Of a DNA stretch of 64,000 nucleotides, positions 1,427 through 33,085 are shown piece by piece. Position 1 is the stretch's first letter, and every line of letters begins with the position of its first letter. The notes beneath the pieces are model-generated. The model saw only the letters and a list, made by a program, of their open reading frames with translations, was not told the origin of the DNA and searched no databases. The stretch comes from Ulvibacterium sp. (GTDB lineage Bacteria; Bacteroidota; Bacteroidia; Flavobacteriales; Flavobacteriaceae): contig NZ_OZ245846.1 of NCBI RefSeq assembly GCF_965228935.1, forward strand, positions 1,264,528 to 1,328,527. The letters are read 5' to 3'. Made by a program: the position numbers and the translations under genes.

Positions 1427-1448
1427 ACTTTGCCCATAATTTTAAGGA

Positions 1449-2150: not shown

Positions 2151-2201
2151 ATAGAATTATTTTTCTTACTAACAAAAATCTGTATAGTTCAATCGTGTTT
2201 T

Positions 2202-3062: not shown

Positions 3063-3068
3063 TCAGTT

Positions 3069-3841: not shown

Positions 3842-3903
3842 ATGCGCGGTTTCAACTTCCGCAGAGACACGGATAGGCTGTATGTAGAGAACGTTATTTA
3901 AAA

Positions 3904-4093
3904 TTATAATGGAAAATATTTTACTGTTTTGTGGCTTTACTGTAAAATTTTTTGCAAAATATCCCCATTAATTCAACTTATTGGAAAATAACACGGGCAA
4001 TTATAATGGAAAATATTTGTCAAAAACCTATTTATAATAGAAAATATTTTGCAGCTTTGTGTCGTTAATGCGTGATAATGGAAAAAAATGTGC
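3904..4093. repeat. Three to four direct repeats of the roughly 17-nt motif TTATAATGGAAAATATTT (copies at about 3904, 4001, 4032 and 4075). Iteron-like or operator-like array upstream of, and overlapping, the fic start.
   Basis: Copies read directly: ttataatggaaaatatttt, ttataatggaaaatatttg, ttataatagaaaatatttt, gataatggaaaaaaatgtg. Confidence 0.5.
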
Positions 4094-5550
4094 ACTTACA
4101 GGAAATTATTTATAGCTCCCCGGATTCCGTAACCTCACGTCGTATCTCCAAATGGGAAGACGAAGGCAGTATACGGAAGATAGCCCCTCGTATTTACACC
4201 TCAAATTTTGAGGATACTCCTGAAAATATCATACGGCGCAACCTGTTTCCTATCTTGGGAAATCTTTATCCCGGAGCCGTTCTCAGCCATAGATCTGCCT
4301 TTGAATTTGCGCCCACACCAAGTAACCAAATTTTTGTAACCTATAAATACACAAAAAAAGTCAAGCTTCCTGGAATCACCATTCGTTTTTTAGAAGGCCC
4401 ACAAGCCATTGATGGGGATACATCCTTTTCAGGGGAATTAATGGTCTCCCAACGCGAGCGGGCGTTTTTGGAAAACCTACAAACCTCACGACAAAGAGGA
4501 GCCAATTCCAAAACGTTGGCTTATCCACAATTAGAGGAAAAACTGGAAAAAATAATAAGGGTTAACGGTGAGGCGGAATTGAACGAACTACGTGATAGAG
4601 CACGTAAAATATCCAAGGAATTGGGCATGGAAAAGGAGTTTGAAAAACTCAATAAAATCATAAGTGCCCTGCTTGTAACAAGGTCGGCAAATGAGCTAAA
4701 ATCCCCATTGGCGACGGCACGTGCCGTAGGCAACCCTTATGATCCTGCCCGTATTCAACTGTTTGAAATCCTCTTTCGGGAATTGAAACAAAACGAGTTT
4801 AAATACCGCAAAGAAAAGAATACGACCACGGAGGCCTATCGCAATTTTGCATTTTACGAAAGTTATTTCTCCAACTACATTGAGGGAACGGTATTTGAGA
4901 TTGATGAGGCAAAACAAGTAATTGCCACCCAACAACCCCTACCCGCTAGAAATGAGGATTCACATGATATATTGGGTACGTATCAATTGGTTTCCAACAA
5001 GCAGGAAATGAAAATTGTCCCATATTCTGCTGAAAACTTGTTGGAAATCCTTCAATACCGCCATGAAATCCTGCTTAGTGCAAGGGAAGATAAAAAGCCA
5101 GGAAAGTTTAAGGACAAGAACAATAAAGCCGGCGACACTTTTTTTGTCGATATGGAACTTGTACGCGGCACTTTATTGCAGAGCTTAGATTTTTATAAAG
5201 CCCTTGTCCATCCTTTTGCAAAGGCAGCTTATATGATGTTCGTTGTTAGTGAGGTTCATCCTTTTTTGGACGGTAACGGCCGTCTGGCCCGTATTATGAT
5301 GAACGCAGAACTTTCCACTGCCCAACAAACCAAGATCATCATTCCCACTGTTTATCGTGAGGATTATCTAGGAGCTTTGCGTCGATTGACCCGTAATAGC
5401 GACCCCAAAGTTTATGTTCGAATGTTGGAACGTGCCCATGCATTTAGCGATACCCTCTTGGCAAGTGATATGGAAAGCATGGAGGAGCAATTACGAAAGA
5501 GCAATGCCTTTAAAGAGAGCAATGAAGGGGTTTTGAAGATTGTTGGGTGA
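4072..5550 (+). CDS. fic: Fic/DOC family protein (probable AMPylating toxin/effector).
   Basis: Canonical Fic motif HPFLDGNGRLARIMM, of the form HPFx(D/E)GNGR. Confidence 0.85.
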   Translation: MIMEKNVHLQEIIYSSPDSVTSRRISKWEDEGSIRKIAPRIYTSNFEDTPENIIRRNLFPILGNLYPGAVLSHRSAFEFAPTPSNQIFVTYKYTKKVKLPGITIRFLEGPQAIDGDTSFSGELMVSQRERAFLENLQTSRQRGANSKTLAYPQLEEKLEKIIRVNGEAELNELRDRARKISKELGMEKEFEKLNKIISALLVTRSANELKSPLATARAVGNPYDPARIQLFEILFRELKQNEFKYRKEKNTTTEAYRNFAFYESYFSNYIEGTVFEIDEAKQVIATQQPLPARNEDSHDILGTYQLVSNKQEMKIVPYSAENLLEILQYRHEILLSAREDKKPGKFKDKNNKAGDTFFVDMELVRGTLLQSLDFYKALVHPFAKAAYMMFVVSEVHPFLDGNGRLARIMMNAELSTAQQTKIIIPTVYREDYLGALRRLTRNSDPKVYVRMLERAHAFSDTLLASDMESMEEQLRKSNAFKESNEGVLKIVG

Positions 5551-5577: not shown

Positions 5578-7284
5578 TCAAAAATTGAGCAGATTGTTTC
5601 CCTTGTTTTTCGGTGGTTCCAAAATACTTTTGGCTTCCCCAATAATTTGGTGATATTTTTTCTGAATATCCGTTTCGGTGGCCATCATCGGAAAGTCAAA
5701 ATTGTCTCCCCAAAACTCTTGATTGATTTGAAATTGTTCTTTCAAAATCTCTTGTTCGTTTCCTTCTGCAATAAACCCATAAAATTCACCAAGACGTAAG
5801 TTCATAATGTCAGTAATCTTTACCCTGTCCCGTTCCTGAATACTCTCGTTAGTACTCTTGTTGAGGGAATTGGTATGCTTCCCAAAAATAGAGGATTGGT
5901 AATAATTGTCCCCGTGGTTGGTGGTCTTAAAGGTTTTGTCTGCTTTGCCAAAAAGTTGGCTTATCATTTGGGCAGAATCCTTGTTGACCGTTCTTCCGAA
6001 AAACTGGTTGCCCATATTGGATAGAATGACTTGGGCCTTGTCCCTTCCGTATCGGTCCACCAATTGGCTAAAGTCCTGACAGGCCAAAACCGTAGCTACT
6101 TTATTGCTTCGTGCCGTGGCCGGTGTTTGTTCCAGTTTGTTGATATAGAGCGTTGGAAGTTCATCCACCAAGACCATTGACTTATGCTTATGGGGCTGGT
6201 TCATTTGCTTTAATGCTACCGAAAGGATTAAAGAAATTACCGGGGCGTAGGTTTGAGACAAGGTGCTTTCGTTACCAATACTGACAAATTTGGGATTGGA
6301 TGGACTATTGATGTCCAAATCAAAATCATTCCCCGAAAGAATCCAAAAAATATCCGGGGTATTCAATTTGGCCAAGTTGGTCTGTAAGGTACTGACTACG
6401 CCAGAGACCTGTCTGCTTGATTCACTTTTGATGGCCTGGTATAGACTGGCCATATAGCCTGCTGCCTCATAGTTTTTCGAAACCTTTTTGACCAACTCCC
6501 CAATATTGCCATGGAGTACCAAACTGATCAGATGGGGCAGGGTACAATAGTGGGGATATTCCAATTTCAAATACCAAATCAATCCCGTCAACACACTTTT
6601 GGCCTCAATGACCCAATAATCCTCGTTTTTGATGTTGTTGGGGGATAGGTTGTACATCAGGGTCTGGGCATATTCGTGTGCATAGGCTGTCTTGGTCATT
6701 AGGTCAGGTTGTAAGGGATTGACCCGCGCACTTCTTTTGGCATCCTTAAAATCCACAAAATAGGGTTTGATACCGGATTGGAAATTATCCATTTGCGTGA
6801 ACAGAAAGCTACTCAGTTCGGGGGATTTAAAATCATAGCAGATACCAGAAAAATGCTGAGTAACGGCCTGTTCCAATATGGGATAGACCAATGAAGCTGA
6901 TTTTCCGCTTCCCGCCCCGCCTTGGATGTATATGCCGCGGTAGGGATTTTCCAATAGTATCGTTTTGTTGTCAATTCGAAATGGGAAATCCCCTTCCTTA
7001 ATCTTGATTGGTCTTTCTACCTTCACACTTCGAATTGTTTTGAAAAGTATTTTGAGAATGTGGTAGGCCAACCACAAAATGAGATAAGCTGGCAAAGTCC
7101 AGGTCACGGGAAAAATTAGGGCAATGAAATAAGACAAAGGTGCACCGAGGATGATGGAAATTTTCAACTTTTTTCTAAGGAAAAGAGTGTAGACCACCGT
7201 ACTTACAACTATCAGTAATGACCTGTAGTAGATACCCTTGGCCCCAAGAATATACTCGACAAAGAAGGTGTTTTCCATGGTCAT
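5578..7284 (-). CDS. mobC: Mobilization protein MobC. TraG/VirD4-like type IV coupling protein.
   Basis: N-terminal transmembrane segments. Walker A GGAGSGKSAS. The size and its position after the relaxase gene match Bacteroidetes mobABC operons. Confidence 0.75.
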   Translation of the reverse strand: MTMENTFFVEYILGAKGIYYRSLLIVVSTVVYTLFLRKKLKISIILGAPLSYFIALIFPVTWTLPAYLILWLAYHILKILFKTIRSVKVERPIKIKEGDFPFRIDNKTILLENPYRGIYIQGGAGSGKSASLVYPILEQAVTQHFSGICYDFKSPELSSFLFTQMDNFQSGIKPYFVDFKDAKRSARVNPLQPDLMTKTAYAHEYAQTLMYNLSPNNIKNEDYWVIEAKSVLTGLIWYLKLEYPHYCTLPHLISLVLHGNIGELVKKVSKNYEAAGYMASLYQAIKSESSRQVSGVVSTLQTNLAKLNTPDIFWILSGNDFDLDINSPSNPKFVSIGNESTLSQTYAPVISLILSVALKQMNQPHKHKSMVLVDELPTLYINKLEQTPATARSNKVATVLACQDFSQLVDRYGRDKAQVILSNMGNQFFGRTVNKDSAQMISQLFGKADKTFKTTNHGDNYYQSSIFGKHTNSLNKSTNESIQERDRVKITDIMNLRLGEFYGFIAEGNEQEILKEQFQINQEFWGDNFDFPMMATETDIQKKYHQIIGEAKSILEPPKNKGNNLLNF

Positions 7285-8180
7285 CGTGAGATTTGATTGT
7301 TCCTGTCCCGTGTCCTTTCTTTAACCATATCTGGGAGCCATTGCTCCTGATGTCGGCGTTGACGAGGTTCTTTTTCCAATTTGATTTTGTTCTGCAAGGC
7401 CAATTTCTCTTCCATAGTACCATGCTTCAAGGTTCTGAGGGTCTCAAATTTTTCCTCCAGCCCACGTTTGTATTTGAACATGTTGTCAAATGAGTCCTCA
7501 TTAAGCTGTTTCCAGTTGGAGCGGTCAAAACCACCTTTAACGGTTCTACCATTCAATACAAGTTCTTTCCCGCTTCTGGCATTGGCCAACGGGCTTAGAT
7601 TGATTCGATGGTCTTTGTGCATCCGAGAGACCGTGATATGTACATGGGTCTGCAATCCTTTTTTAGGCTCACCGCTTTTGACCTGCCCCGATTTGACGGC
7701 TGCATCCATTCCTTTGAATCGCCGTTTGTGTTCAATCTTCGCAAACCAGACAATCTGGTTTTCTTTGATGTCCTTTTTGAAATTGGCGGCATAGTTTTGC
7801 ATGGCCTGTCGCACAAAAAGTTTAATGACCTCATTGTAGTGTTCATATTCTTTTTGGTTGAGTTCATCCACGGTTGCAATCGGTCTTTTGGCAATAGTGG
7901 AGGTCAAGTGCTCCTGTTCTTTTTGGCTAAAATTCAAGGTTAACGTAAAATACCTGTCCTGTTTTTTGGCCAATCCCTTGCCTTTATTGTTATCGTCCAC
8001 CAGTGAAATCGCATTGGCCGTTGTTATCATATTTTGGTCCTGGTTAAAGAAGAATTGCTGTCGTTCTGGTTGCCCCTCTTTTTTGAGTTCCTTGTTTTCC
8101 TTATTGAGATAATGCCCATATTTGGAGCAGCTTCCTTTGTTGTCCGATGAAGTCTGATGTACGATACTTACAGGCATCAT
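7281..8180 (-). CDS. mobB: Relaxase/mobilization nuclease MobB.
   Basis: HUH-type motif (KKGLQTHVHITVSRMH). Its stop overlaps the mobC start. Its position between mobA and mobC fits. Confidence 0.7.
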   Translation of the reverse strand: MMPVSIVHQTSSDNKGSCSKYGHYLNKENKELKKEGQPERQQFFFNQDQNMITTANAISLVDDNNKGKGLAKKQDRYFTLTLNFSQKEQEHLTSTIAKRPIATVDELNQKEYEHYNEVIKLFVRQAMQNYAANFKKDIKENQIVWFAKIEHKRRFKGMDAAVKSGQVKSGEPKKGLQTHVHITVSRMHKDHRINLSPLANARSGKELVLNGRTVKGGFDRSNWKQLNEDSFDNMFKYKRGLEEKFETLRTLKHGTMEEKLALQNKIKLEKEPRQRRHQEQWLPDMVKERTRDRNNQISR

Positions 8181-8533
8181 CTTCCCATTCGTATTTGTTC
8201 AAAAATTCGATTGAGTTCATCGATAAGTTTGTTGAACAATGTCTCGGTACGTTGCCCGTTTTTGAGCAGTTGCTTTTGGATGGGATAAAGGATTTCGGAT
8301 TCCTGTGTTTTGAAGAAGGAAACAATTCGCCGATCAACGACCTTGATCATTTCAAAAGCATTCTTGCCCTTAATGGCCTGCGGGTCGGTTCCTGTCTTTT
8401 GGAAATAATGAATCATTTCCTCGGTAAATTTTCCGACCCCTCTATTGTGTTCTGAAGCCAATTTCTTGAGTTCCCTATGGCTCCTTTCGCTGATAATAAC
8501 GCTCTTTTTTCGCATGGTGATGGCTTTGTCCAA
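8177..8533 (-). CDS. mobA: Mobilization protein MobA (small, basic, RHH-like DNA-binding accessory protein).
   Basis: 118-aa ORF whose stop overlaps the mobB start. N-terminal basic region RKKSVIISERSHRELKKLA. Confidence 0.55.
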   Translation of the reverse strand: MDKAITMRKKSVIISERSHRELKKLASEHNRGVGKFTEEMIHYFQKTGTDPQAIKGKNAFEMIKVVDRRIVSFFKTQESEILYPIQKQLLKNGQRTETLFNKLIDELNRIFEQIRMGR

Positions 8534-9137: not shown

Positions 9138-11141
9138 TCAAATTTCATTGTAATATCCAAATTTCTTGTCAACCAATACAGCCCGATCCAAGTAACTGTT
9201 AAATTCTTCACACGATGTTTCAGGTAGTAAGCTGCACGAATAGCAAGCTGCTAAGTTTAGCCCGCCGATTCCTTGTCCATCAGAGTGGTAACAAATGGGA
9301 TCAGATGCACAGTCTTTGGCCCTTGTAATTGCAGAGTTTAAAATTTTCACAAATCTTTCGGGTTCTGCTTGTCGAACTAAGCCACCATAACTTCCTTCGG
9401 TTCCTGCTATCGTATAAATTAGAACACCTTGCATTTCTTTTTCGTTTGTGTACAAACGTTCTTGCATTGAAGTTGCAGGGTAGCCAGTTAAAAATTCCAA
9501 TTCTTTAATCAGTATATGAGAAAAAGTATGAATCAAAATAAACTTTGAAAGATATTGAAGGTTGCCAAGCATCTTGTTTTTCTCATCATTCATTCGATAA
9601 TCTGACCGTCCCATATTTTCAAGCATCGAGTCCATTCTTTTTTTGAATTCAGACTTATCTTTAACGCTTTCATACCAATCAATGATACTCTCTTTATCAA
9701 AGTCAATAAAAATACCTTCACCAAAGCTTTCTACACCCGGAAGAATTGTGGTTCCGTTCCCTTTTGTAGATGTGTATTTGGCTTTGATTCCTTTTTCGGG
9801 TCGTACATAGTCGTCCATAGACAACTCAGCATATAAATCCTTATCTATCGGTTCCTGACGGCTATATCCTGTTTGGACGGACGATAATTTTAATCTTTTT
9901 AATTTCAACAATTTGTTGATTTTAAAAGATTTCAAAGAATCTGATATTACTGATTCTACAACAAGATTTTGATCATTTTCGTGATTTTCCGAAAGTAAAT
10001 AGTCATATTCTCGTAATCGGTATTCTGTTTCAGAAACAAAGTCATTTTGCTCAGGCGAGATGATTTCTTTGATTTGCCCTAAAGTGAGATCAACTTGATT
10101 GTTTTCCAAAATGTTTGTTCTTATTTGCTCAGGAGTTAAATTTATATTTCTGTGTAGTGTCTTAATTACTGATTTTAATTCACTTGATATGCTTCTGGTT
10201 GGTATAAACAAACTATTGGTTATCAATGGATAGTAAACGCTATTGCTGCTACGAATTACCGGTTTGTAAAATATTTTTTGTGACTTACCTTCCTTGCTTA
10301 AAATTTCGTTTCCTTCCTTATCCTTAACTGTACTTATTTCTCCATTGGTGAAATGCGGATATATTAGCCCTAATAGCCCTGCAAGCGAGAATTGTCTTCC
10401 TTTGGTTTTGCAATCAGGATTTTTACATTGAATTCGTACACCGGAAAAATCTGAGAACTTATCAGATTTTAGGTAATAAAGATCTTGTTTTTTGCAACAG
10501 GGATTAAAATCATTAAAGAATTTTGCTGATTCGCCTTCGTCTTTCTTTTCATTACTTGATTTATCCGCTCTATTGGTCCATAAGTGCCAGGGCAAGTCAT
10601 CAATATCTCCATTTGGAGCAGTCATAATAAATCTGACTTGTTCTAAGCGAAAGAATTTACGCTTTTCTTTATTGTCTTTTGCTTTGGAATAGCATTTATA
10701 GCATACTGGAGGTTGAAAAGACTCGCGATTCCTGTTTACATCATTCGAATAGACATTACACCATCCTTTAAACCAATCATCAATGCGTTTAAATCTTCCA
10801 CATTTATTACAGTACATCCACTTGGGAAAATACTCTGCATTTACAATATGATTTCTGAGAGAAGGAATAGATGCATTGTAAAATTCCGAGTAATTAGCAG
10901 GAACTTTTGCAATAAAATTCAGGTTTTGAAAATAGTACTTAAGTCGTTTCAATAATCTATCATCTTCGATAATCTGATTTTCTGTTAATTCTTCCCGTCC
11001 ACGCTCAATCATAGCAAAGTACTGCCATTTGTCAAACTCCCTTACCTTTAAAGCACCATCAATTGTCTCCAAAATCGACCCAACTCCACCATAGGAACTT
11101 ATAAGTTTTCTTGTCTGTAATTCCGTGTACTTTTTACCCAT
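9138..11141 (-). CDS. DUF1998-like protein (DrmB-like) with Cys-rich zinc-binding clusters. The probable start is the internal Met at 11141, 4 nt after the helicase stop.
   Basis: Cys clusters CNKCGRF...CYKCYSK and a C-terminal CYHSDGQGIGGLNLAACYSCSLLPETSC, as seen in DUF1998 partners of defence helicases. Translationally coupled to the upstream helicase. Domain identity is from recollection, not a search. Confidence 0.5.
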   Translation of the reverse strand: MGKKYTELQTRKLISSYGGVGSILETIDGALKVREFDKWQYFAMIERGREELTENQIIEDDRLLKRLKYYFQNLNFIAKVPANYSEFYNASIPSLRNHIVNAEYFPKWMYCNKCGRFKRIDDWFKGWCNVYSNDVNRNRESFQPPVCYKCYSKAKDNKEKRKFFRLEQVRFIMTAPNGDIDDLPWHLWTNRADKSSNEKKDEGESAKFFNDFNPCCKKQDLYYLKSDKFSDFSGVRIQCKNPDCKTKGRQFSLAGLLGLIYPHFTNGEISTVKDKEGNEILSKEGKSQKIFYKPVIRSSNSVYYPLITNSLFIPTRSISSELKSVIKTLHRNINLTPEQIRTNILENNQVDLTLGQIKEIISPEQNDFVSETEYRLREYDYLLSENHENDQNLVVESVISDSLKSFKINKLLKLKRLKLSSVQTGYSRQEPIDKDLYAELSMDDYVRPEKGIKAKYTSTKGNGTTILPGVESFGEGIFIDFDKESIIDWYESVKDKSEFKKRMDSMLENMGRSDYRMNDEKNKMLGNLQYLSKFILIHTFSHILIKELEFLTGYPATSMQERLYTNEKEMQGVLIYTIAGTEGSYGGLVRQAEPERFVKILNSAITRAKDCASDPICYHSDGQGIGGLNLAACYSCSLLPETSCEEFNSYLDRAVLVDKKFGYYNEI

Positions 11142-11145
11142 TGTT

Positions 11146-14100
11146 TCAGATTTTAGGTAGTTCCTTTTTAATAAATGAATTGGTATCAATTTCACGCATT
11201 GACTGCATCACAGCCCATTTCTCATCTTCACCAAAATCTTTTTGTGACGGTTTTACCAACAACCCTTCCTTGCCATCATCATATTTGGTAAGACTGTGTT
11301 CTTCTATCTTATATGTCCAATCTTCAGCCAGTTGCTCTAATTTATTCTCCAACAACTTGTACATAGTTTCATTGGCTCCAAATCGTTGTTGAATTTCACT
11401 TTTCAATCCATCTAACATTTCAGGTTCGAAATGTTGGGCAGCATCATCGGCAGCCATTCCCCGTATTTTATGTCGTAAATAAGTTATCATCACACTGGTT
11501 AGCATCTTCTCTAATGTGTTCTCGGTAAAAGGGGTAAGACTTATGGGTTCAACACTCTTATAAAATGCCTGATGAAAAGGAATAAAATGTTCAAAGTGTG
11601 ATTTATCTCTCGCTCGATTCGCATCAAAAAGATTAACAACCAAACCTTTGTATTTTCTTCCTACACGACTTGATGCCTGAATGTATTCAGCGACATTTCT
11701 TGGTTGTCCATTGATGAGCATAATATTGAAGCGGTCTATGTCAATTCCAACGGAAATCATATTTGTTGCGAGTACCAAATCAATGACATTTTGAGCATAG
11801 GTTCGGCCACTTTGGGGAGTTACAATTGTATTATTCGAAAACCTATTTTCTTCTAATTTTTTAAGTGTTTGCTTAATTTTCGCACTTTCTATTCTGCTGG
11901 TCAGTTCTTCATCCCTATTATATAAATAACTATAATTAAATGCTTGCTCTGGGTTGTCGCTAAAAAGTCTTTGTTGAAGTGTGGAAGTGAAGTTGGAAAT
12001 TTCATCCCCGACTTTATTGTGAATCTTGCCTACATCTTTTAAGCTATTATAGTAAGAAACAATTGTCCAGTATTTGTCAAAGGTGCTATAATCTTTGTCT
12101 CCATTTTGAATTAACAACTTGTAAGCTTCAAGCCTTGCTACAAAAAGATGTGCAAGCAATTGTAGTTGTGTATCAATGGAAGATTTTCCAGTAGGTAAAA
12201 AGCCGATGTATCGTCTTTTACTTTCTGATTTGGCTTCTTTTGCGAAAAAGCTGTCTGCGTAAGAAAGTCCATTGGGTGGAAATATATTTACTGTTCGACT
12301 GGCTCCGTATAGTGCTTTAACTTGCTCATCGGTATTGCGTGTAGTAGCCGTTGATGATATTATTTTGGGTTTCCGATCTTCTTTGGTACAAAGTATTTCT
12401 ATTACACTTTCAAAAATTCCTGTTATCGAGCCTAATGGTCCGGTAAGCAAATGAAGTTCGTCCTGTATTATGAGGTCTGGTGGCAATTTTTCGCCATCCA
12501 ACGAATTAAAGAATCGATGTCCATTAGATTTCCAAGCAAGCATAGCAAACTTATCCACCGTGCCAAATAGTAACGTTGGAGGATTTCTATAAAGCATTTC
12601 ATCAACTACCTGAATAGGTAACTCGTTATGAAAATGGCACTTGTTATTTACACATCTAATTTTAAATGATGCATTTCGACCATTTCCATTAATTTGGAAA
12701 CCACTCGTCCAGTTTCCATATTGATTTTTGGTAATTAGTTTTGTGCCACACCACGAGCAAGAACTAATCTGAAAGACATTTTTACTTTCTGGGTTGCCGT
12801 TGTTTCCGCTATTCAGTTTGTTGCATTCTTCCCTTATTTCTTCTTCCTTTTCTAATGCTTCTTTAACAGAGTTCGGAGTTGACGACATACCTACCCACAT
12901 CCCAATAGTAATCGGTTCATCTTTTAGTTCATCGGAATAGTGACATCTTAAAAACTCCAAGGCGCAAATTAGTCGTGATGCTCGTTCAAACTGCTGTGCT
13001 GTTAACAGACGCAGCGTATATCGCATTATCACAGTAGTGCCTTCGTATCGCGTTGAGTTGGTCAGTCTTCGATAAATGATTGTAAATGCTGCAACTGCCA
13101 GATATGCTTCTGTTTTCCCACCGCCTGTTGGAAACCAAATTAGATCTACGACTTCATTTCTTGCTTCTGATTCTAAGTCTGTAATGCTATCTATATTCAG
13201 TAAGAGAAAAGCTAATTGAAAGGGACGGTATTTGGGACGATTGAAAGGCAATTGAGTGAAATCATAATCTTTGAAGAAATTGAGTTTTGCGTAATCCAAA
13301 GATTGGCTTATGTCTTCCAACTCCTTCTCCTTTCCCGAAAAATCTGCATCATTCGATATGATTATCTGAATTAACATTGCTGTATTTGCTAATTGGAAGG
13401 CTTTATAAACTGCGTTATCCTGTAATCTTCCAATGTTACTTCTCAGTCGTTCCAGATTGTAGTCCAATTTTTGAAAGATAGCTTGCTCAATATTCTTGTT
13501 TGAAGTTGAAAGTGTTCTCTGCTTAGTTATCCACTGTTCGTAAAGGCTTATAAAATCGTTAAGTCGATTCAAAACAACTTCTTGTGTTTCCGTTGTGAAA
13601 TGAGACAGATTATATATGTCCAAACCATCGTTTATAGAACTGTAAACATTTTGGTTATCAAAGTCGGATTCATCAAATGAATTTTTTGTATCTTTTACAT
13701 CATACTGCGGCAGGAAACTTGTGGCGATTCCAGATGCGTCCTTTTTCCATTCTACAGAACAATTGTGCCCAATACCGTAACTGAATTTGTCTTTATACAA
13801 ATAGTTTAAAAGTTCTGCTTCCTCATCTAAAGGATTTAACTCTGAATAGGATTTGAAAGTCTGCAACTTGGTATCCTGTACTTCGATTTTAGCCTGAAAC
13901 ACACATTTCTGATTTAGAATTTCATTGGCGTTTGAATATTTATTGACCGGTTGTTCCGTAGAGGAGTTGACCAATTGAATTTTTACATATTTGTATCCCG
14001 GGTTTTCTTGATGAGTGTAAGTCTTTACGGTGTAGCTTATCCTAATATTTACATCATCTTTTTTTGTTAAGACTTTTTCATATAACTTTTCCGGTGTGGT

Positions 14101-14868
14101 TAGATCGGTAATTTGAATTTTCCTTTTCTCCTTTATTGATTCTCTTCGCCAGGTTCTTCCAAGTAGTTTTTCAGTTTTTGTGGTTTCAATTCTATTTCTG
14201 AACTCTTTTTGATATGCATCAAAGTCGGCATAATCACCTGATCTTGGTCTGCGTTTTTTGCCAACGATATTTTTCGTTAAGAATAGATATCCGTTCTTAC
14301 AGTCTAACTTGCCTTTTAGTGAAGAAGGAAAGTGTTCATTGTTTCTAATGGTTTCATCAAATAACTGCTCGGGAAATTGGACTTTTAGATTTTCAACTCC
14401 GTACTTATCTTTTTCGTCAAGTTGAGTATATATGCCGAAGCTAAAAACCACATCAATTTGTTTAACATCATCAGCCACACAAAATGTTAGTCCAATATTA
14501 GTGGGGTAAAAAGTGCTGTGAGATACTTTTATCTCATCATCGTTTTCTGTCTTATTTCCTTTATCGTGTCCATTGTTCTGATCATTCAAATCTTCTCTTG
14601 GTTGTTCTATTTCGTCTTCTAGGTCTTCATCTTCATTATCAGTTTCACTTTCCAAAAGGCAATCGGCCAACTCATCTAATGACGCTATCCTTTGCTTTTC
14701 GGGAAATAAAATGCCGGTATAATATTGTTGCAATGGATAATTTCTGATTATCTCATTTTCAATATGAGATTTTTTAACGAACACATCAGAGCCTGGCCCC
14801 AACATTCCTTTGCGTATTCTTCCTTGAAAAAGATCTCTTGCTATTTCACCTTTTGATTTATTCATCAT
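11146..14868 (-). CDS. Large SF2 helicase (DEAH/DELH-box), DrmA-like. It has an approximately 550-aa N-terminal region of unknown function.
   Basis: Motif I FPTGGGKTEAY. Motif II IQDELHLLTG. Motif VI QASSRVGRKYKG. An inserted CxxC...C..CH zinc finger (CSWCGTK...CVNNKCHFH). Confidence 0.75.
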   Translation of the reverse strand: MMNKSKGEIARDLFQGRIRKGMLGPGSDVFVKKSHIENEIIRNYPLQQYYTGILFPEKQRIASLDELADCLLESETDNEDEDLEDEIEQPREDLNDQNNGHDKGNKTENDDEIKVSHSTFYPTNIGLTFCVADDVKQIDVVFSFGIYTQLDEKDKYGVENLKVQFPEQLFDETIRNNEHFPSSLKGKLDCKNGYLFLTKNIVGKKRRPRSGDYADFDAYQKEFRNRIETTKTEKLLGRTWRRESIKEKRKIQITDLTTPEKLYEKVLTKKDDVNIRISYTVKTYTHQENPGYKYVKIQLVNSSTEQPVNKYSNANEILNQKCVFQAKIEVQDTKLQTFKSYSELNPLDEEAELLNYLYKDKFSYGIGHNCSVEWKKDASGIATSFLPQYDVKDTKNSFDESDFDNQNVYSSINDGLDIYNLSHFTTETQEVVLNRLNDFISLYEQWITKQRTLSTSNKNIEQAIFQKLDYNLERLRSNIGRLQDNAVYKAFQLANTAMLIQIIISNDADFSGKEKELEDISQSLDYAKLNFFKDYDFTQLPFNRPKYRPFQLAFLLLNIDSITDLESEARNEVVDLIWFPTGGGKTEAYLAVAAFTIIYRRLTNSTRYEGTTVIMRYTLRLLTAQQFERASRLICALEFLRCHYSDELKDEPITIGMWVGMSSTPNSVKEALEKEEEIREECNKLNSGNNGNPESKNVFQISSCSWCGTKLITKNQYGNWTSGFQINGNGRNASFKIRCVNNKCHFHNELPIQVVDEMLYRNPPTLLFGTVDKFAMLAWKSNGHRFFNSLDGEKLPPDLIIQDELHLLTGPLGSITGIFESVIEILCTKEDRKPKIISSTATTRNTDEQVKALYGASRTVNIFPPNGLSYADSFFAKEAKSESKRRYIGFLPTGKSSIDTQLQLLAHLFVARLEAYKLLIQNGDKDYSTFDKYWTIVSYYNSLKDVGKIHNKVGDEISNFTSTLQQRLFSDNPEQAFNYSYLYNRDEELTSRIESAKIKQTLKKLEENRFSNNTIVTPQSGRTYAQNVIDLVLATNMISVGIDIDRFNIMLINGQPRNVAEYIQASSRVGRKYKGLVVNLFDANRARDKSHFEHFIPFHQAFYKSVEPISLTPFTENTLEKMLTSVMITYLRHKIRGMAADDAAQHFEPEMLDGLKSEIQQRFGANETMYKLLENKLEQLAEDWTYKIEEHSLTKYDDGKEGLLVKPSQKDFGEDEKWAVMQSMREIDTNSFIKKELPKI

Positions 14869-16645
14869 CTTTAAAAATTTGAATAGACTCTATTGTTATC
14901 AAAGGAGCATTTAGTTCGGCAAATTTCTCTATCTGTTGCTTTGTGAACTTTTGGAGTATACGTCCTTTGCTTCCGTTTTTAATAAAGTCGGTTATTTCAT
15001 CGCTCAGGTCCCTTCCCAACGCAATCATAATGCTGTTGTAGGCACTTCTTGATGTCATAATGTTTCTAAAATCTTCATCGTCTATTTCTGTTAGCTTTTT
15101 TATCAAAACCAAATCTTTTCTGCTTTGTGGAAATTTCATTCTACTTTTGATATTGATCCAACTCCGCAATGTGGCTTCACTCATTATTGAAATTCCATTT
15201 TCCTGTAGATGAGCTAAAAAATCATACAATGAAGCAAACTTGTCTCCGTAGTTTGACAAACTCGTTTTCCATAAGTTTGAGCACTGTTCTATCTGTTGGA
15301 AGTGACCATCTTCATCGGCTTCTAAGGCAATTTCATATAAAGTATCTTTTGAAACATTATCATAGATTCTTACCTTATCACCTGATTTAAGGTTTTTAAC
15401 TTTTTCATCTCTTTCAGTATTACGTACCTGGACGAGTACCGTCTTATTTTCATCTAACACCTTTGTATCTGTGCCATTATTAAAGGTCAATATGAACTCC
15501 AGATTTGTATCGTATTCAGTTGTATTGTCAGGGTTTGAAATTGAGGTCCCATCTTTTTCAAATAATCTTTTTATTAGCTCTGAAACGTCTTCAATTTGTT
15601 CAGTTTCTTGAAATGAAATCTCACATAGTTTTTCTCGGTCTTTATCTCTTATTTGTTTGTAAACATCGTTTTGGAAACGTGATTGACACAGTTGGAAATA
15701 GCTTTCTTCTTGTGGATATAATAAAAAATAGATGTTATTGGTACTATACATCGTGATTCGAAAGTGATCCATTCCATAGAAACCTAAGAATACTATTGTC
15801 TTGTTCTTATGGTCTAAGGATTTGAACTCTTTATACGATATGATATTTCTGATTCTTCGGCTATTACTTTCATCTTCCCATTGTGGTATATTGTCTTTTG
15901 GAACAACGAGATAGTCTATCCTATCAAACGAATCTAATTCAGAATACTTAGAGCAATGACTTCTTTTATATTCTATAAGAAAATCATATTTCTCGGCAAG
16001 ATGTAACCATTGATTATCTATTTCTTCCCAAAGGTCTTTATCGCAAAACTCACTTTCAAAAGAATCAAACCCACCTTTTTTAAAGTGTGCAAGATGTTGG
16101 TCTAACTGGTTAGCAAGTCGACTACTTTCATTTGGAATGGTTAATGGGAGAATGTTTCGAGCGTATTTGAGTAACCCTTTTAGGTTTGCACCAAAGCTTT
16201 GTTCAATATGCTCAATTGCTCCAAAGAAGCCATCAAATTTGTTCTGAAAATCAGGATCTTCGACTTTCACAATTTCTGGGATCTTCGATTCTACAAAAGA
16301 GAAATGGTCAAGTTCAGGTAGCGTCCAATTCCATTTCAGCATATTTGGAATAGAGTTTTCAGGAATATCTTTACTTCCAATGAGGAGGCAGTTCTCGTAT
16401 CGTTTGTTGTTTAAGTCTTCAGATATTTCTCGATATGATTCTCTGTATTTGCTTGAACCAAGTATGGCTATATTTCTAATATCAATTCCTTCTTCTAAAA
16501 TTTTTTTGCGGGCAGTTTGGTAATCGTTTACTATGAATATCATCGGGTCAATGGGAATGTTATCAGTAGTTCTGCCCGATTTGGTAACATATTGAAATGG
16601 TATAGCCTTGTGGATTTTTTGATCCTTGATTTTAAAATTTTTCAA
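14858..16645 (-). CDS. Hypothetical 595-aa protein. Third component of the helicase/DUF1998 operon.
   Basis: ORF overlaps the helicase start by 11 nt. No recognised motif. Confidence 0.5.
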   Translation of the reverse strand: MKNFKIKDQKIHKAIPFQYVTKSGRTTDNIPIDPMIFIVNDYQTARKKILEEGIDIRNIAILGSSKYRESYREISEDLNNKRYENCLLIGSKDIPENSIPNMLKWNWTLPELDHFSFVESKIPEIVKVEDPDFQNKFDGFFGAIEHIEQSFGANLKGLLKYARNILPLTIPNESSRLANQLDQHLAHFKKGGFDSFESEFCDKDLWEEIDNQWLHLAEKYDFLIEYKRSHCSKYSELDSFDRIDYLVVPKDNIPQWEDESNSRRIRNIISYKEFKSLDHKNKTIVFLGFYGMDHFRITMYSTNNIYFLLYPQEESYFQLCQSRFQNDVYKQIRDKDREKLCEISFQETEQIEDVSELIKRLFEKDGTSISNPDNTTEYDTNLEFILTFNNGTDTKVLDENKTVLVQVRNTERDEKVKNLKSGDKVRIYDNVSKDTLYEIALEADEDGHFQQIEQCSNLWKTSLSNYGDKFASLYDFLAHLQENGISIMSEATLRSWINIKSRMKFPQSRKDLVLIKKLTEIDDEDFRNIMTSRSAYNSIMIALGRDLSDEITDFIKNGSKGRILQKFTKQQIEKFAELNAPLITIESIQIFKDDE

Positions 16646-16653
16646 TTCATCAA

Positions 16654-17214
16654 CTATTTTTTGTCGGTAATTATGACCGATTTATACCTGAATTGAGAAG
16701 GAACTTCTTTATGAATCCCCTTGACTGTTTCTTTGAAAAATGATCTATAAGAACTAAAGGTGTTGTGCACCCTTGTTGATGTAGCACTTGCATACGTTTT
16801 AATGTATGATTTTAAGTTTTCAATTGGCACATTGGGATACTTGGAATTAGCTCTATCTCTTTTTATAAGTACTGCTTTATCTTTGTTGATTTTAACGATG
16901 ACATATCGATCCCTACCTTTTTGCAGCGTATCACCTTCACTGAACTCTGTTATGTTGTCCAGGTAGTTGTCAACAAAGTTGTATAGTGATAGAAGAATTA
17001 TTGTTGGTATGTAAAACTGGTGTTTCGCTCCTTTATGGGGAATATGAATAAGGGTGTTTGGCTTTCTGCGTGTATCCCGCACCGTTTGATATATCAGGTA
17101 GGAGTTGACAAAATCAAAGTCACTGAAGAGTAGATTTTCAGTATTGAAGTATTCTTGCAATTTCTTTTTTGCCACTTCTGTAAGAATCTCCAAGTATTTG
17201 CATAACTCATTCAT
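16654..17214 (-). CDS. Hypothetical 186-aa protein. First gene of the helicase/DUF1998 operon.
   Basis: Its stop lies 8 nt upstream of the next ORF start. No recognised motif. Confidence 0.45.
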   Translation of the reverse strand: MNELCKYLEILTEVAKKKLQEYFNTENLLFSDFDFVNSYLIYQTVRDTRRKPNTLIHIPHKGAKHQFYIPTIILLSLYNFVDNYLDNITEFSEGDTLQKGRDRYVIVKINKDKAVLIKRDRANSKYPNVPIENLKSYIKTYASATSTRVHNTFSSYRSFFKETVKGIHKEVPSQFRYKSVIITDKK

Positions 17215-17925: not shown

Positions 17926-18828
17926 TTAACCATCGTTTTTATTTTTTATAGTAAACATTCTTCCTAATTCTCGCTCTTCCAAACCAAATTCCTTTTCAAC
18001 TTCCATTATCTTCATATTTATCTTAGGCTCAGTCAGATATTTATAGGTATTGTCATATTGTTTCTCAGGGAAGATGTGATTCGGAGACACATCTAGCATA
18101 TCATTTTTAAGATTAATTGGAAATTTTATGGTTGCGATAATTTCATCCTTTAAATCATAATTTTCCTTTGAATACTTGGATTTCGCTATAAATATTCCGT
18201 GTTGGAAGTGTGGTCTTAAACTCAAATCACGATGATGGTATCTTAAATCGCACCATTGAGTTTTATTACCCATACAAATTCCTTCATTGTTAACTTTAGT
18301 GTCGTAATCAGCTTTTAGAAGATAAATCCAACCAAATTCATTTTTGCTTTTTTCAATTTTATAATTTTCCTCTGCGATCCATTTCATTTGATTTCTTGCG
18401 AACCAGAGTCCAATGAAAATATTGTCTACTAAATCTAACCAAGGTGTTTTTAATCCATAATGCTGAAATGATGCTCCTCCAATTTCACCTTTAAATCTTG
18501 CTGCTGGTTTCAGTTTGTAAATTTCTTCTTTGACCTTTTTAAAAGCATTTAATCTTTTCTCTTTTCTTTCAGAATTGAGATTTTCTCCTCTAAAAATTGA
18601 GGGAACCATATTCTCATAATCGTTTACTTGACCTCTAATAAAAATGTGATTCCTTTTGTTTGGTAGATTGTATTCGAACTTCATGAACCCCAAAAATCTA
18701 ACTATCAACATTAAATCATCGATATACACATATTTTCTATTGGTTTTTGGATTCGTGTCTAATTTCAAAGAAGGGTGCTTTTTCTTCAAAAATTTCTTAT
18801 CCACGAACTTTTGTATCAATGATTCCAC
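17926..18828 (-). CDS. FRG-domain protein.
   Basis: FIRGQVNDYENMVPSIFR and ASFQHYGLKTPWLDLV match the FRG-domain signature motifs (FRGq...; QHYGlpTrlLD). Confidence 0.6.
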   Translation of the reverse strand: MESLIQKFVDKKFLKKKHPSLKLDTNPKTNRKYVYIDDLMLIVRFLGFMKFEYNLPNKRNHIFIRGQVNDYENMVPSIFRGENLNSERKEKRLNAFKKVKEEIYKLKPAARFKGEIGGASFQHYGLKTPWLDLVDNIFIGLWFARNQMKWIAEENYKIEKSKNEFGWIYLLKADYDTKVNNEGICMGNKTQWCDLRYHHRDLSLRPHFQHGIFIAKSKYSKENYDLKDEIIATIKFPINLKNDMLDVSPNHIFPEKQYDNTYKYLTEPKINMKIMEVEKEFGLEERELGRMFTIKNKNDG

Positions 18829-19233
18829 TTATTTTCTGTCAATGGTGGCTAACGCCTAGTTAGACGAAGTTACGTCCTGATTTTTAATTTGTTGTGAATT
18901 GAAGATACAGATAAAATCTAGAAGACAACTGGGGTGTTGCTAAATTGCTTTTAGTGATTCTTATGTAATGTGCGTAGCTTGAGCCGAAAACTTGGAGCGG
19001 TTTTTAGGTATTGTTTATAAGCGATTTGTTTAGTGGGGCGATACGAACATCATGAAATTAACTTTTTTAAATAGGATTCATAGTTCCTTAAACCAGCCGT
19101 TTTTAAGGGGCGGTTCCAAAAGAACCACTTTTCTCTTACGAAGGTGTCTAAATCCTGATTTTTTTGTTGTCTCGGCAATTTAACTTTTATGGGTAAATCT
19201 AATCTCCAATAAATTATTGGAGGAAGTGGGAAA

Positions 19234-19533
19234 TCAATATCTGGACTTACGGACAAATGCATTTTTCCGAGCCAAATCTAGCAGTTCCTTTTTGGAGTAG
19301 AATATCGAGCGGCCAATCTGATAATAGGGAACGATTTTTTTCTTTTTCCAACTGATTAATGAGGTAACGGATATGCCCAAAAACTTTGCAGCCTCTTTTT
19401 GGGTCAAGCGATCTTCTTCGGGATTGAGGGAAGTTTCTTGAATATACTCCGTTTTACGAAGTTCTTCCAAGACCATTTTTACGGCTCTTTTTAAATCCTC
19501 TTTTGTGTGCGTGTAAAAAAGTACATTCCCCAT
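19234..19533 (-). CDS. Excisionase-family / helix-turn-helix DNA-binding protein.
   Basis: 99 aa. HTH segment LTQKEAAKFLGISVTSLISWKKKK, typical of the Bacteroidetes excisionase-like family. Confidence 0.55.
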   Translation of the reverse strand: MGNVLFYTHTKEDLKRAVKMVLEELRKTEYIQETSLNPEEDRLTQKEAAKFLGISVTSLISWKKKKIVPYYQIGRSIFYSKKELLDLARKNAFVRKSRY

Positions 19534-19687
19534 TTGAATCGTATTTAAACCAGAGCGTATCGCTCGATAACTAAATTGGGGATAAATTCAAATAACCTCC
19601 CTGCACTTCCAGTATCAGTGCAATTTTATTGGTTGTATTGGGTGAATTGAGGAGGAAATTTTACAAGGATGAATAACATAAGTGCAA

Positions 19688-21166
19688 TCAATCATCAATT
19701 TTAAGTATAGAACGGATGCGTCTCCTTATGTCTTTGTCGGGGAAAAGATGGTGTTCATCACTTGGTATGCGTATCAGGGAACTGTAACTAAAACCGTCTT
19801 TTCCATTCTTTTCATGAATATCCTCGTCCAAAGTACGAATGATTTGGGTCTTGTTGCTAAGAATGTATTTTTTATCCGCTAAGTACAAAAAAAGTTTTGC
19901 AAAATCTTTTGCGTGTTTTGATGGTATGAAGTTTAAAGGCTTGTACCCAAAATTGCTAACAGTGCGTTTTGCAAAATCAATTTTTTCGTCATATTCGAAG
20001 GAGAAGTTTCGATATAAAAAACTTTCGATTGCCCTACCTCGCTCTTCGTCAACCTGTATTTTAAGATGATTGAAAAATTCGGTCAATACTTTTTTTAATC
20101 TGAGTTGTGACCCCTTTTTTGAGATGACAATCTGGTTTTTTGGTGGTTCTTCTGTTTCTGCTTTGAGTGAGACTTTTAAATCCCTCGCTTTCAATTTTTT
20201 TAGCCAAGTTGAAAATTGAGATGAATGTACCAATGGTGGCGAAAATGACTTGATGGTAATGATTCCGATTTCTTTGTCTTTCACCGCAAAATTTCCTTTG
20301 TCCGTGTCAATCGTCAAATCTTGAAAATACTCCTCGCCCAAGAGAGCTTCCAATTCCTTGAGGGACATTAAAAGTTTTTTCTTGAGCAAGCCAAATAATC
20401 CTTTTTGTTTTAGGGCATTCCTTACGAGCTGCCTCCATTTTTCAAAATCGACCAATACAGGCCATAAAACAACCGACCTGTCCATTATGGCAAAAGGGAG
20501 GGCCTCTTTGCCCGCGCTGACAAAAAGTTTTTTGATATGATCTCCCTCTTTTCTGATTTCGTCCGATAGCGAATGCCCCAGCCATTTGGCCTCATCAAAA
20601 AAGAGTTGCTTTAAATAATTGAGGGCATAACCATAAAAAGGGATTGGTTCTTGGTCGGGGAAGCTATGTACAGGGAAACAAAGCCGTTCTTCCAAAGACA
20701 TTAAATGCAATAACTTTTCGAAGTCAATTTCCGGTTGCCTGATGTCTTTTTTTGCCTTGAAATAGTACAAAAAACGATTTATTCGTTCCAATGAGGCCAT
20801 TTCTTCAAGAATATAATTCATGGTTCCATAATTGCTATGAAAAAATGAACGGCAATCCTCATAGAACGTGTCGGGCAAGATGGATTTTTCCGGTGTATCT
20901 ATACCAATAGGAACTGATTGCTCATTTGACGGCAGGTATTTTTTGGGGTTAAGTGTCGAAAAATCGAACAACACATCTAGATTACCCAGCAAGACATCGT
21001 CTTTTAAGTTATTGAGAACCCATTCCATGAGGTGATAGTATTGGTATGGGCTTAAGCTTTTGATTTTTCCTCGGGTAAATTGCTTGAATTCCTTGGTCTG
21101 AAAGTCGCTAAAGAAAAACAGCTTTATCGGGTCTAAAGATTCTTCTATGTTAAGGGCTTGAATCAA
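19688..21166 (-). CDS. Hypothetical 492-aa protein.
   Basis: Long ORF. No recognised motif. Confidence 0.5.
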   Translation of the reverse strand: MIQALNIEESLDPIKLFFFSDFQTKEFKQFTRGKIKSLSPYQYYHLMEWVLNNLKDDVLLGNLDVLFDFSTLNPKKYLPSNEQSVPIGIDTPEKSILPDTFYEDCRSFFHSNYGTMNYILEEMASLERINRFLYYFKAKKDIRQPEIDFEKLLHLMSLEERLCFPVHSFPDQEPIPFYGYALNYLKQLFFDEAKWLGHSLSDEIRKEGDHIKKLFVSAGKEALPFAIMDRSVVLWPVLVDFEKWRQLVRNALKQKGLFGLLKKKLLMSLKELEALLGEEYFQDLTIDTDKGNFAVKDKEIGIITIKSFSPPLVHSSQFSTWLKKLKARDLKVSLKAETEEPPKNQIVISKKGSQLRLKKVLTEFFNHLKIQVDEERGRAIESFLYRNFSFEYDEKIDFAKRTVSNFGYKPLNFIPSKHAKDFAKLFLYLADKKYILSNKTQIIRTLDEDIHEKNGKDGFSYSSLIRIPSDEHHLFPDKDIRRRIRSILKIDD

Positions 21167-21470
21167 ACTGGGATAAGTCTATTTTGAAATAAGACAATCA
21201 TAAGGTAAACCTAAAGCCAATGTATTGAAAATCTTTTATTTGAAATGTAGGATTTAACGCCAAACGGTTTGGACAATTAGGTAATCGATTTGAATATGTC
21301 TCTAAATACTGTATGGATTAATGACAACACTATTTTGTATCGAGGAAACATTCTGTTGAAAAACTATTTGAAAAGATTGTGGTAATAGAAAATCATCATA
21401 AATAAGGTTTTTTAATTTCAGTCAATGATAATTGAAAGTATTTGATACTTAATAATCTTACGCTGGAAAC

Positions 21471-21962
21471 ATGGAGAAATATAAGCCATTAATAGACGAA
21501 ATGACACGTATTACGGTAGAAGAGGGATACAGTTCAAAGGATGCTTTTTCTTTGGTGGTCAAGCAATATATTGATAACAAATGGGGAAATGTTTATCTGA
21601 ATTCTTATGATTTGGAAGAAATATTTGCTAGAGGAGCCAGTGCTGCGTCGAATATAATTTATCGAAGAGAGAAAAAGGGTACTTTAAAAAGAGAGCCAAA
21701 AGTTTTAAAAGAAAACCCTTTAACGGGAAAACCGAAAACAAAAAGCGACAAAAAATTCAGCCCGCTCTTTTCCAATATTTACGGTACACATTGGAAATTA
21801 AGAGATAAAATGTCGTCCAAATGGAAAGAGCTCAGCTATAAGCATAACAATCAATCCAAGGCTATAAATGAAATGATAAAGTTTTATGGAATTAATATAG
21901 ACGATCCTTCTGATAAGAAATTCGTTATGTTATTGGATGTTGTGAAAGAACACACAAATTAA
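21471..21962 (+). CDS. Hypothetical 163-aa basic protein.
   Basis: ORF converges with the integrase gene (stops overlap). Confidence 0.4.
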   Translation: MEKYKPLIDEMTRITVEEGYSSKDAFSLVVKQYIDNKWGNVYLNSYDLEEIFARGASAASNIIYRREKKGTLKREPKVLKENPLTGKPKTKSDKKFSPLFSNIYGTHWKLRDKMSSKWKELSYKHNNQSKAINEMIKFYGINIDDPSDKKFVMLLDVVKEHTN

Positions 21963-28052: not shown

Positions 28053-28070
28053 TTATTTCTACTAAATCCG

Positions 28071-29456: not shown

Positions 29457-29458
29457 TC

Positions 29459-30175: not shown

Positions 30176-30221
30176 ATCACGACCACGACGTATACTATTA
30201 CACCTTAAACACCAACCAACT

Positions 30222-30932: not shown

Positions 30933-30967
30933 GTCAATTTAAACAACTAAAAAAATAAGTAACAACT

Positions 30968-33034: not shown

Positions 33035-33085
33035 TAAGGAAATAGGCTCCAACTCACATTTTGGTTGTGAGCCTAAATTCCTCTA

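Follow-up and report, generated by a model that had tools for sequence, protein, structure and literature searches.

The core of the anti-phage system DISARM is defined as drmA, drmB, the PLD nuclease gene drmC and a methyltransferase gene, and classical DISARM is both defined by and named for its link to restriction-modification (R-M). Class 1 systems, such as that of Serratia sp. SCBI, consist of DrmD, DrmMI, DrmA, DrmB and DrmC with or without DrmMII, and the class 2 system of Bacillus paralicheniformis consists of DrmE, DrmA, DrmB, DrmC and DrmMII. Here, a related locus is described at positions 9138 to 17214 of a 64,000-nucleotide (nt) stretch of the Ulvibacterium sp. genome (assembly GCF_965228935.1, contig NZ_OZ245846.1, positions 1,264,528 to 1,328,527). 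This whole stretch is called the window, and all coordinates refer to it. With a probability of roughly 75%, the locus is a three-gene drmE-drmA-drmB (E-A-B) DISARM-like module, carried as cargo by an integrative mobilizable element, in which drmE is split by a 1-nt deletion. It is related to class 2 DISARM but has only DrmA and DrmB of the core and fails two defining features, the PLD nuclease (DrmC) and the methyltransferase.

Genetic and structural work gives an idea of which parts of DISARM matter. As cited in later papers, Ofir et al. 2018 found drmA, drmB and drmE each to be required in class 2 DISARM, whereas drmC was dispensable and is often absent from annotated operons. In the structure of Serratia DrmAB, the complex is auto-inhibited by a trigger loop (residues 176-232), which is displaced by single-stranded DNA with a 5' overhang. 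A preprint with a phylogeny of YprA helicases (Bell et al. 2025, bioRxiv 10.1101/2025.09.15.676423), which also concerns ARMADA, BRIGADE and TALON, states that the DISARM-like branch holds 'many uncharacterized DISARM-like ... classes'. In this work, a helicase and a DUF1998 protein encoded by two separate genes are given as the hallmark of the branch. The Ulvibacterium locus would fall into it because its helicase and DUF1998 protein are split in the same way.

The first-pass annotation of the window had placed four minus-strand open reading frames (ORFs) of 186, 595, 1240 and 685 amino acids (aa) here, and the ORF listing of the window reproduced each of them with the same coordinates and length. 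The following list gives them together with the genes to which they were assigned; P0002 and P0003 are the homologues of DrmE introduced further below.

16654-17214, minus strand: 186-aa ORF; drmE 5' fragment, ending at a TAG made by the frameshift; aligns to residues 1-186 of P0002 and P0003; RefSeq hypothetical protein WP_422082819.
14858-16645, minus strand: 595-aa ORF starting at an internal TTG; drmE 3' fragment; RefSeq WP_422082818.
14858-17214, minus strand: drmE, interrupted; a 785-aa DrmE-family protein after one A is restored (Pfam, NCBIfam, homologues, AlphaFold2 model).
16657-16662, minus strand: frameshift site, a run of six A (A6; GAC AAA AAA TAG), from comparison with homologous DNA.
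11146-14868, minus strand: 1240-aa ORF; drmA, a YprA-like superfamily 2 (SF2) helicase (PADLOC, NCBIfam, PDB).
9138-11195, minus strand: 685-aa ORF with a GTG start; drmB, most likely at 9138-11141, a DUF1998/MZB zinc-binding protein (PADLOC, Pfam, NCBIfam, PDB).

The 186-aa and 595-aa ORFs are separated by a gap of 8 nt with a change of frame, the 595-aa and 1240-aa ORFs overlap by 11 nt, and the 1240-aa and 685-aa ORFs overlap by 50 nt if the latter is counted from its GTG or by 8 nt if it is counted from the ATG at 11141. A scan of the operon for sigma-70 promoters and terminators gave hits not above those in shuffled sequence; Bacteroidota promoters deviate from the sigma-70 consensus.

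The helicase and the DUF1998 protein were proposed in the first-pass annotation to correspond to DrmA and DrmB, and profile and structure-database searches agree with this. The 1240-aa protein matches PADLOC DrmA profiles with a best E-value of 2.1e-194, and its sole match in the PDB is the Serratia DrmA chain 7s9v_A (3.4e-131). It was described as an SF2 helicase of the DEAH type with an internal zinc finger, and the corresponding motifs were all found, including a motif VI that reads QASSRVGR. The insert has the pattern C-x2-C...C-x4-C-x-H.

13108-13125, minus strand: DrmA Walker A motif, GGGKTE, from motif reading; identical in the alignment with Serratia DrmA.
12451-12465, minus strand: DrmA motif II (DExH box), QDELH, from motif reading and the alignment with Serratia DrmA.
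12628-12759, minus strand: DrmA internal Cys/His zinc-finger-like insert, CSWCG...CVNNKCHFH; its CxWCG part aligns with Serratia DrmA.
14509-14706, minus strand: acidic variable loop of DrmA (residues 55-120), candidate equivalent of the trigger loop by position and composition.

The acidic loop contains 23 D/E and 6 K/R residues and is poorly conserved in itself, lying between two conserved motifs. It is located just N-terminal of a PTNIGLTFCV motif that aligns with Serratia residues ~226-240, and the segment directly after it aligns with residues 216-264 of Serratia DrmA. An acidic loop at this position was kept in all 14 homologues examined.

The product of the last gene, already suspected to be DUF1998-like, matches Pfam PF09369 (DUF1998/MZB) with 30.3 bits against a cutoff of 24.2, NCBIfam DrmB_fam with 305.8 bits against a cutoff of 240, and PADLOC DrmB with an E-value of 2.7e-59. 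In the PDB, it matches Serratia DrmB (7s9v_B, 1.8e-41) with the C-terminal Cys cluster aligned. The start of drmB is most likely the ATG at 11141, as judged from related sequences, which gives a protein of 667 aa and an 8-nt overlap with drmA; a 91%-identical DrmB homologue is also 667 aa long, and homologues range from 661 to 678 aa with an 8-nt overlap on drmA.

9234-9311, minus strand: DrmB C-terminal four-Cys DUF1998 metal site (C629, C635, C651 and C654 in 685-aa numbering), which aligns with the Cys motif of Serratia DrmB.

The two upstream ORFs had been left unrecognised and counted as two genes. They are the halves of one gene, split by the 1-nt deletion, so the block contains three genes instead of four, and this gene belongs to the DrmE family. 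The 595-aa ORF matches Pfam DrmE_C with 33.5 bits against a cutoff of 27, and the frame-repaired protein matches NCBIfam NF038316 DrmE_fam with 105.8 bits against a cutoff of 80. UniRef names the 595-aa fragment 'DISARM anti-phage system protein DrmE domain-containing protein'. Among 120 listed representatives of homologue clusters at 90% identity, the majority are unsplit, ~780-830 aa long and cover both ORFs, and several carry the NCBI name 'DrmE family protein'. The closest among the matches listed, P0002 and P0003, are single proteins of 785-786 aa with 87% and 83% identity over the 595-aa part, and their N-termini match the 186-aa ORF residue for residue.

At the junction, the DNA of the window reads GAC AAA AAA TAG TTG ATG AAT TG, and homologous DNA reads either GAT AAA AAA ATC GTT (A7) or GAT AAG AAA ATA GTT GAT GAA TTG (AAGAAAA). 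Adding one A to the A6 run yields the 785-aa protein with the sequence ...TDKKIVDELK..., the same as in P0003. Reading through the junction motif is in frame in 24 of the 24 homologous loci that contain it, most of them without an A-run at this place. RefSeq annotates the two halves as separate hypothetical proteins of Ulvibacterium sp., and this is the one point in favour of four independent genes forming a new four-component helicase/DUF1998 system. There is next to no chance that this is correct, as the homologues are mostly single proteins across both ORFs, the 595-aa ORF starts only at an internal TTG, and the break is not at a domain boundary but within the first RecA-like domain, immediately behind its motif-II strand.

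The split of drmE might still be apparent only. A sequencing or assembly error in the homopolymer, with an intact and functional drmE-drmA-drmB in the organism, is a serious candidate whose chances fall somewhat short of even. Length changes of one base in homopolymers are the error seen most often in long reads, and the lesion is exactly such a change. The sequence comes from one 5.88-Mb contig, the two halves of drmE have retained 83-87% identity with intact homologues, and neither drmA nor drmB is truncated. However, 146 homopolymers of at least 6 nt in the window lie inside visibly unbroken ORFs, which speaks against widespread errors of this kind in the assembly. Should the deletion be real, this copy of drmE is probably crippled and the system probably inactive, or weakly expressed by way of A-run slippage; an assembly error would mean an intact module.

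A-runs are generally prone to slippage, and the run in drmE could also be a programmed or phase-variable switch acting by ribosomal -1 frameshifting, transcriptional slippage or slipped-strand mutation. If tRNA-Lys slipped by -1 on AAA AAA just ahead of the TAG, the product would carry TDKK-IVDEL, exactly as in the homologues. Nevertheless, such a switch is very unlikely: the reading frame is kept in all 24 homologous loci, most of them have AAAAGY or AAGAAA, which are not slippery, and A6 or A7 is short for efficient phase variation. As no homologous locus is out of frame and most have no A-run, the interruption is a lesion or an error peculiar to this sequence. Programmed frameshifting was rejected because the site is not conserved.

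To get an idea about the fold, an AlphaFold2 model of the intact homologue P0002 was built with 75 relatives, reaching a mean predicted local distance difference test score (pLDDT) of 83.7 and a predicted template modelling score (pTM) of 0.66. Foldseek comparison of this model with the PDB returned the SF2 helicases MDA5/RIG-I, Hef, Chd1 and XPB. According to the model, DrmE is built on two RecA-like domains with a fold similar to SF2 helicases. Where a helicase would have GxGK[ST], in the loop behind the first strand, the sequence is IPHKGAKHQ (family consensus IPDKETKSQ), and the motif-II strand ends with VIITDKK and carries no acidic pair. These features suggest that DrmE is a non-catalytic or atypical helicase-like subunit. 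In the P0002 model, the frameshift falls directly after the motif-II strand and within the first RecA-like domain, and neither fragment by itself is likely to fold into a functional protein. The family is small, with 271 representatives at 50% identity among 1.84 billion proteins, and a word-indexed homologue search found 137 DrmE clusters at 90% identity. Its members are scattered, mostly in Bacteroidota and additionally in Clostridia, Bdellovibrionaceae, Cloacimonadota, Aenigmatarchaeota and metagenome-assembled genomes of Helarchaeota.

The absence of a PLD nuclease and a methyltransferase from the window had been reported in the first-pass annotation and was confirmed by a Pfam scan of 44 window ORFs (43 non-nested ORFs of at least 110 aa and the 99-aa ORF of an HTH_17 protein), in which neither a PLD (DrmC) family nor a DNA methyltransferase was matched. 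SNF2_N and N6 methyltransferase families had no match in the window either. The window ORFs that gave no Pfam match are the 186-aa drmE fragment and those at 266-3701 (four ORFs), 8177-8533, 19688-21166, 21471-21962, 30222-33034 (two ORFs) and 63091-63642.

Related loci were collected from a scan of species-representative genomes and from contig look-ups. In all 20 distinct loci of the near clade that were long enough to judge, the genes for DrmE, DrmA and DrmB are adjacent, overlapping and in the same order. An all-versus-all BLAST of the other ORFs in these loci revealed no additional family common to more than two loci, and no PLD nuclease was found downstream of drmB in related loci. When 106 neighbouring proteins were scanned with Pfam, the 25 most frequent families included neither a DNA methylase nor a PLD family; the commonest were sorting domains, epimerases, integrases, ResIII and TPR, none of them shared by more than six proteins. 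An apparent loss of drmB in one locus (L018) was an artefact of the ORF-overlap filter, as tblastn finds the intact gene.

The bare triplet is also present in four more distant DrmE-like clades, namely a Cloacimonadota lineage, a lineage beside a Piwi/Argonaute gene, the Haliscomenobacter plasmid pHALHY02 and a Hymenobacter plasmid. A word-indexed search with an alignment of distant DrmE-like proteins gave only six proteins, two of which were used for neighbourhood look-ups. In two of the four distant clades (L027:12435-16027 and L030:6764-10456), drmA is split into two genes, one for the N-terminal 'chassis' (300-363 aa) and one for the helicase part (790-876 aa). The triplet of L030 comes after the gene for a Piwi-domain (Argonaute-like) protein. 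The recurrence of the same triplet in 20 related loci and in four distant clades indicates a conserved architecture and not a fragment of a canonical DISARM locus. The block that the first-pass annotation proposed to survey is thus conserved, as three genes and not as four.

Alternatively, the triplet might be the helicase core of a canonical class 2 DISARM that relies on a cytosine methylase and a PLD nuclease acting in trans from other sites of the genome. Bravo et al. proposed that DrmAB may recruit unlinked PLD nucleases, noting that DrmC is often missing, and some E-A-B loci adjoin unrelated R-M systems. In Psychroflexus planctonicus, an MmeI-like type IIG R-M enzyme (L005:18111-20822; PDB 5hr4, 6e-186) lies immediately downstream of drmB, an arrangement not conserved in the other loci. 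On the plasmid NZ_CP010055.1 of Hymenobacter sp. DG25B (L033:3792-18671), the triplet is directly downstream of a type I R-M operon (hsdM, hsdS, hsdR) in the same orientation; the two could form one super-operon, the only sampled case of a possible functional link to a methylase. Against partners in trans, no methylase or PLD neighbour is conserved in 24 loci from five DrmE-like clades, none is encoded in the 64-kb window, and the module moves with mobile elements as the triplet alone, an argument that it functions without a dedicated partner. On this evidence, partners in trans are unlikely. Other defence neighbours were seen in single loci, such as Shedu SduA_C with a Schlafen-type helicase, HNH_2 proteins, and toxin-antitoxin genes with IS91, and this variety is ordinary defence-island variability.

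A Lactiplantibacillus plasmid served as a control for the detection of methylases. It encodes, in this order, a C5 methyltransferase, an 801-aa protein, DrmA and DrmB, so a methylase in cis would have been noticed if present. The 801-aa protein gave no significant hhalign alignment with DrmE (probability 1.3%) and no NCBIfam DrmE call, and the plasmid is therefore a control for methylase detection only and not a proven DrmE locus.

Two further arrangements were observed alongside these loci. On a contig of ENA ERZ6863811 (L002:1-8532), a second, divergent DISARM-like triplet lies directly upstream of drmE-drmA-drmB, with two small genes between them. It encodes a protein of ~757-876 aa without a match to DrmE, a 1339-aa DrmA-like helicase (34% identity) and a 711-aa DrmB-like protein (27% identity). 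The Bacillus cereus plasmid NZ_AP022916.1 carries a locus annotated as DISARM, with DrmA, a DUF1998 protein, a helicase-related protein, a DUF4391 protein, a site-specific DNA methyltransferase and a DEAD/DEAH helicase. This is a different, methylase-bearing DISARM order and recurs on at least 14 B. cereus plasmids.

The triplet of the Ulvibacterium locus is flanked by mobilization genes on one side and by an integration end on the other. The mobilizable, defence-rich context with Fic and FRG genes had been noted from the sequence alone, and Pfam and NCBIfam scans found the corresponding families.

4072-5550: Fic protein related to SoFic (Pfam and NCBIfam scans).
5578-8533, minus strand: mobilization genes encoding a type IV coupling protein, a DUF5712 relaxase-type protein and a BfmA/BtgA-like protein (Pfam and NCBIfam scans).
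17926-18828: FRG protein (family scan).
19234-23203, minus strand: integration end with an HTH_17 (excisionase-like) protein, a 492-aa protein and a tyrosine integrase (family scan).

The triplet thus lies between the mobilization genes at 5578-8533 and the integration side at 17926-23203. The G+C content is 34-39% in the region of the locus, compared with 40-47% in the chromosome to the right, and the right two-fifths of the window contain nitrate-assimilation and other housekeeping genes. A search for the ends of the element found no tRNA genes and no convincing flanking direct repeats.

The locus and class 2 DISARM have in common separate, overlapping drmA and drmB genes, a DrmE-family gene ahead of them and the same gene order. 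Its DrmA is of the 'short' NCBIfam type, and the three shared genes are those reported as essential for protection in Bacillus. Unlike class 2 DISARM, the locus and its sampled relatives have neither the DrmMII C5 methyltransferase nor DrmC in cis; the DrmE of the locus is distant from canonical DrmE, and its gene is frameshifted in this copy. DrmA and DrmB are also clear homologues of the class 1 proteins of Serratia, for which cryo-electron microscopy structures (7S9V/7S9W) are available, and they share with them the ATPase motifs, the CxWCG insert, the DUF1998 Cys site and an acidic loop at the position of the trigger loop. Nevertheless, the SNF2 helicase DrmD, the N6-adenine methylase DrmMI and DrmC of class 1 are missing, and a degenerate SF2-like DrmE is present where class 1 has an active SNF2 helicase.

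Other systems with related helicases are less similar. ARMADA, as described by Bell et al. 2025, requires a BrxHII-like helicase, a PglX-like methylase and a helicase fused to DUF1998/nuclease, none of which the locus has. Druantia DruE and DpdJ of the Dpd system are members of this YprA-like superfamily too and carry a DUF1998 module, but in these the helicase and DUF1998 are fused, and the locus has no partner genes of Druantia or Dpd. For the four ORFs, PADLOC reported no match to DruE or any other Dru profile at E <= 0.01, and the matches to DpdJ were marginal (1.6e-5).

The YprA-like family of DrmA and DrmB also includes the repair helicase MrfA, and a housekeeping DNA-repair module of the MrfA/YprA type without a role in defence was considered. 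In MrfAB/YprAB, however, a single-chain MrfA with a C-terminal MZB works with the exonuclease MrfB, whereas the locus splits helicase and MZB and has no exonuclease gene. The sole PDB sequence matches are DrmA and DrmB and not MrfA, the module is found on plasmids and mobile elements with Fic, FRG, Shedu, R-M and toxin-antitoxin genes around it, and its phyletic distribution is patchy. A role in repair is therefore highly improbable.

With these comparisons, the locus is less exotic than proposed, since its proteins already have family names in NCBI annotation. Of the suggestion that it is a minimal or new variant of the helicase/DUF1998 defence family, the DISARM-like character without PLD nuclease or methylase has held up, and the supposedly unfamiliar partners have turned out to be DrmE. 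The component families are publicly named, and the E-A-B architecture and the methylation-independent logic it implies are undescribed in the searchable literature; neither a description nor a test of an E-A-B-only class was found there, including the accessible part of Bell et al. 2025.

Several points weigh against the interpretation as a disrupted drmE-drmA-drmB module with a role in defence. The best NCBIfam match of DrmA, DISARM_DrmAS, reaches 856 bits and stays under the equivalog cutoff of 950. PADLOC DrmE profiles gave no match to the repaired DrmE or to six relatives, even at E 0.1, and because these profiles miss the protein, the assignment depends on the Pfam and NCBIfam scores given above. 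The frameshift may be an assembly artefact, which makes the 'disrupted' part uncertain. A methyltransferase or PLD nuclease may be encoded elsewhere in the 5.9-Mb genome, as the negative result covers the 64-kb window. In the class 2 DISARM of Bacillus, the loss of drmMII was reported as deleterious, and a methylase-free version would need another safeguard. The acidic loop of DrmA is a candidate equivalent of the Serratia trigger loop by position and composition rather than by structure, and a defence function of the clade is proposed from homology and context.

Based on the comparison with Serratia, a possible mode of action can be outlined. DrmA is an ATP-driven SF2 helicase of the YprA type, DrmB supplies the zinc-binding DUF1998 half, and both are expected to form a heterodimer like Serratia DrmAB. 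DrmE, with its degenerate Walker A and DExx motifs, would most likely be an essential non-catalytic partner or sensor. The acidic loop of DrmA might keep the complex auto-inhibited, by analogy with Serratia DrmAB, until it is displaced by free 5' ends of single-stranded DNA from an incoming phage or plasmid. The helicase might then load and block replication, or pass the DNA to a host nuclease. As the clade encodes no methyltransferase or PLD nuclease in cis, self and non-self would be told apart by DNA structure or through an unlinked host methylase, and not by a dedicated methylation mark.

Taken one step further, the triplet might be a self-sufficient, methylation-independent defence system in which an ATPase-dead DrmE, as a sensor or licensing subunit, replaces self-marking by a methylase, and in which invaders are stopped without a dedicated nuclease, by loading of the helicase on free single-stranded DNA ends. 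This proposal is tentative, and the odds lean against it. If true, the triplet would be a minimal functional DISARM and possibly the ancestral or commonest form of DrmE-containing systems.

Irrespective of the mechanism, a conserved mobile clade that keeps only DrmE, DrmA and DrmB raises the questions of how autoimmunity is avoided without a methylation mark, what the effector is without an encoded nuclease and what DrmE does, and the family offers a three-protein system in which to address them. For annotation, the lesson is that a frameshifted drmE appears in RefSeq as two hypothetical proteins. Furthermore, the DrmE profiles of PADLOC v2 miss these proteins, and loci of this kind will probably be under-counted by rule-based tools for which DrmC and a methylase are mandatory.

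Some further observations concern other parts of the element and the window. Between the HTH_17 protein and the integrase, the 492-aa protein (19688-21166, minus strand) and a 163-aa protein (21471-21962, plus strand) have no Pfam, NCBIfam or PADLOC family match. The same holds for four consecutive ORFs of 386, 233, 286 and 210 aa at 266-3701 on the plus strand, which form the part of the window with the lowest G+C content (33-34%). A 20-nt motif, AATTATAATGGAAAATATTT, occurs in three copies just upstream of the Fic gene (3902-4049) and once more, with 85% identity, at 21424-21443 upstream of the 163-aa ORF; the element may use it as a shared site for regulation or recombination.

Beside the integrase, a 931-aa SF1 helicase (AAA_11/AAA_12; PADLOC MkoC/MkoA-like, 3e-40) is encoded at 25257-28850 on the minus strand with a 259-aa HTH_19 regulator ahead of it, and this gene pair, too, may be of the defence type. 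Just outside the mobile element, at 29061-38369 on the plus strand, six co-oriented genes encode a CesT_Tir_1 chaperone-like protein, PspA/IM30, proteins of 236 and 688 aa, a 112-aa biotin/lipoyl-domain protein and a 1658-aa DUF3686/DUF7902/AAA ATPase, and this block looks like a conserved multi-gene system.

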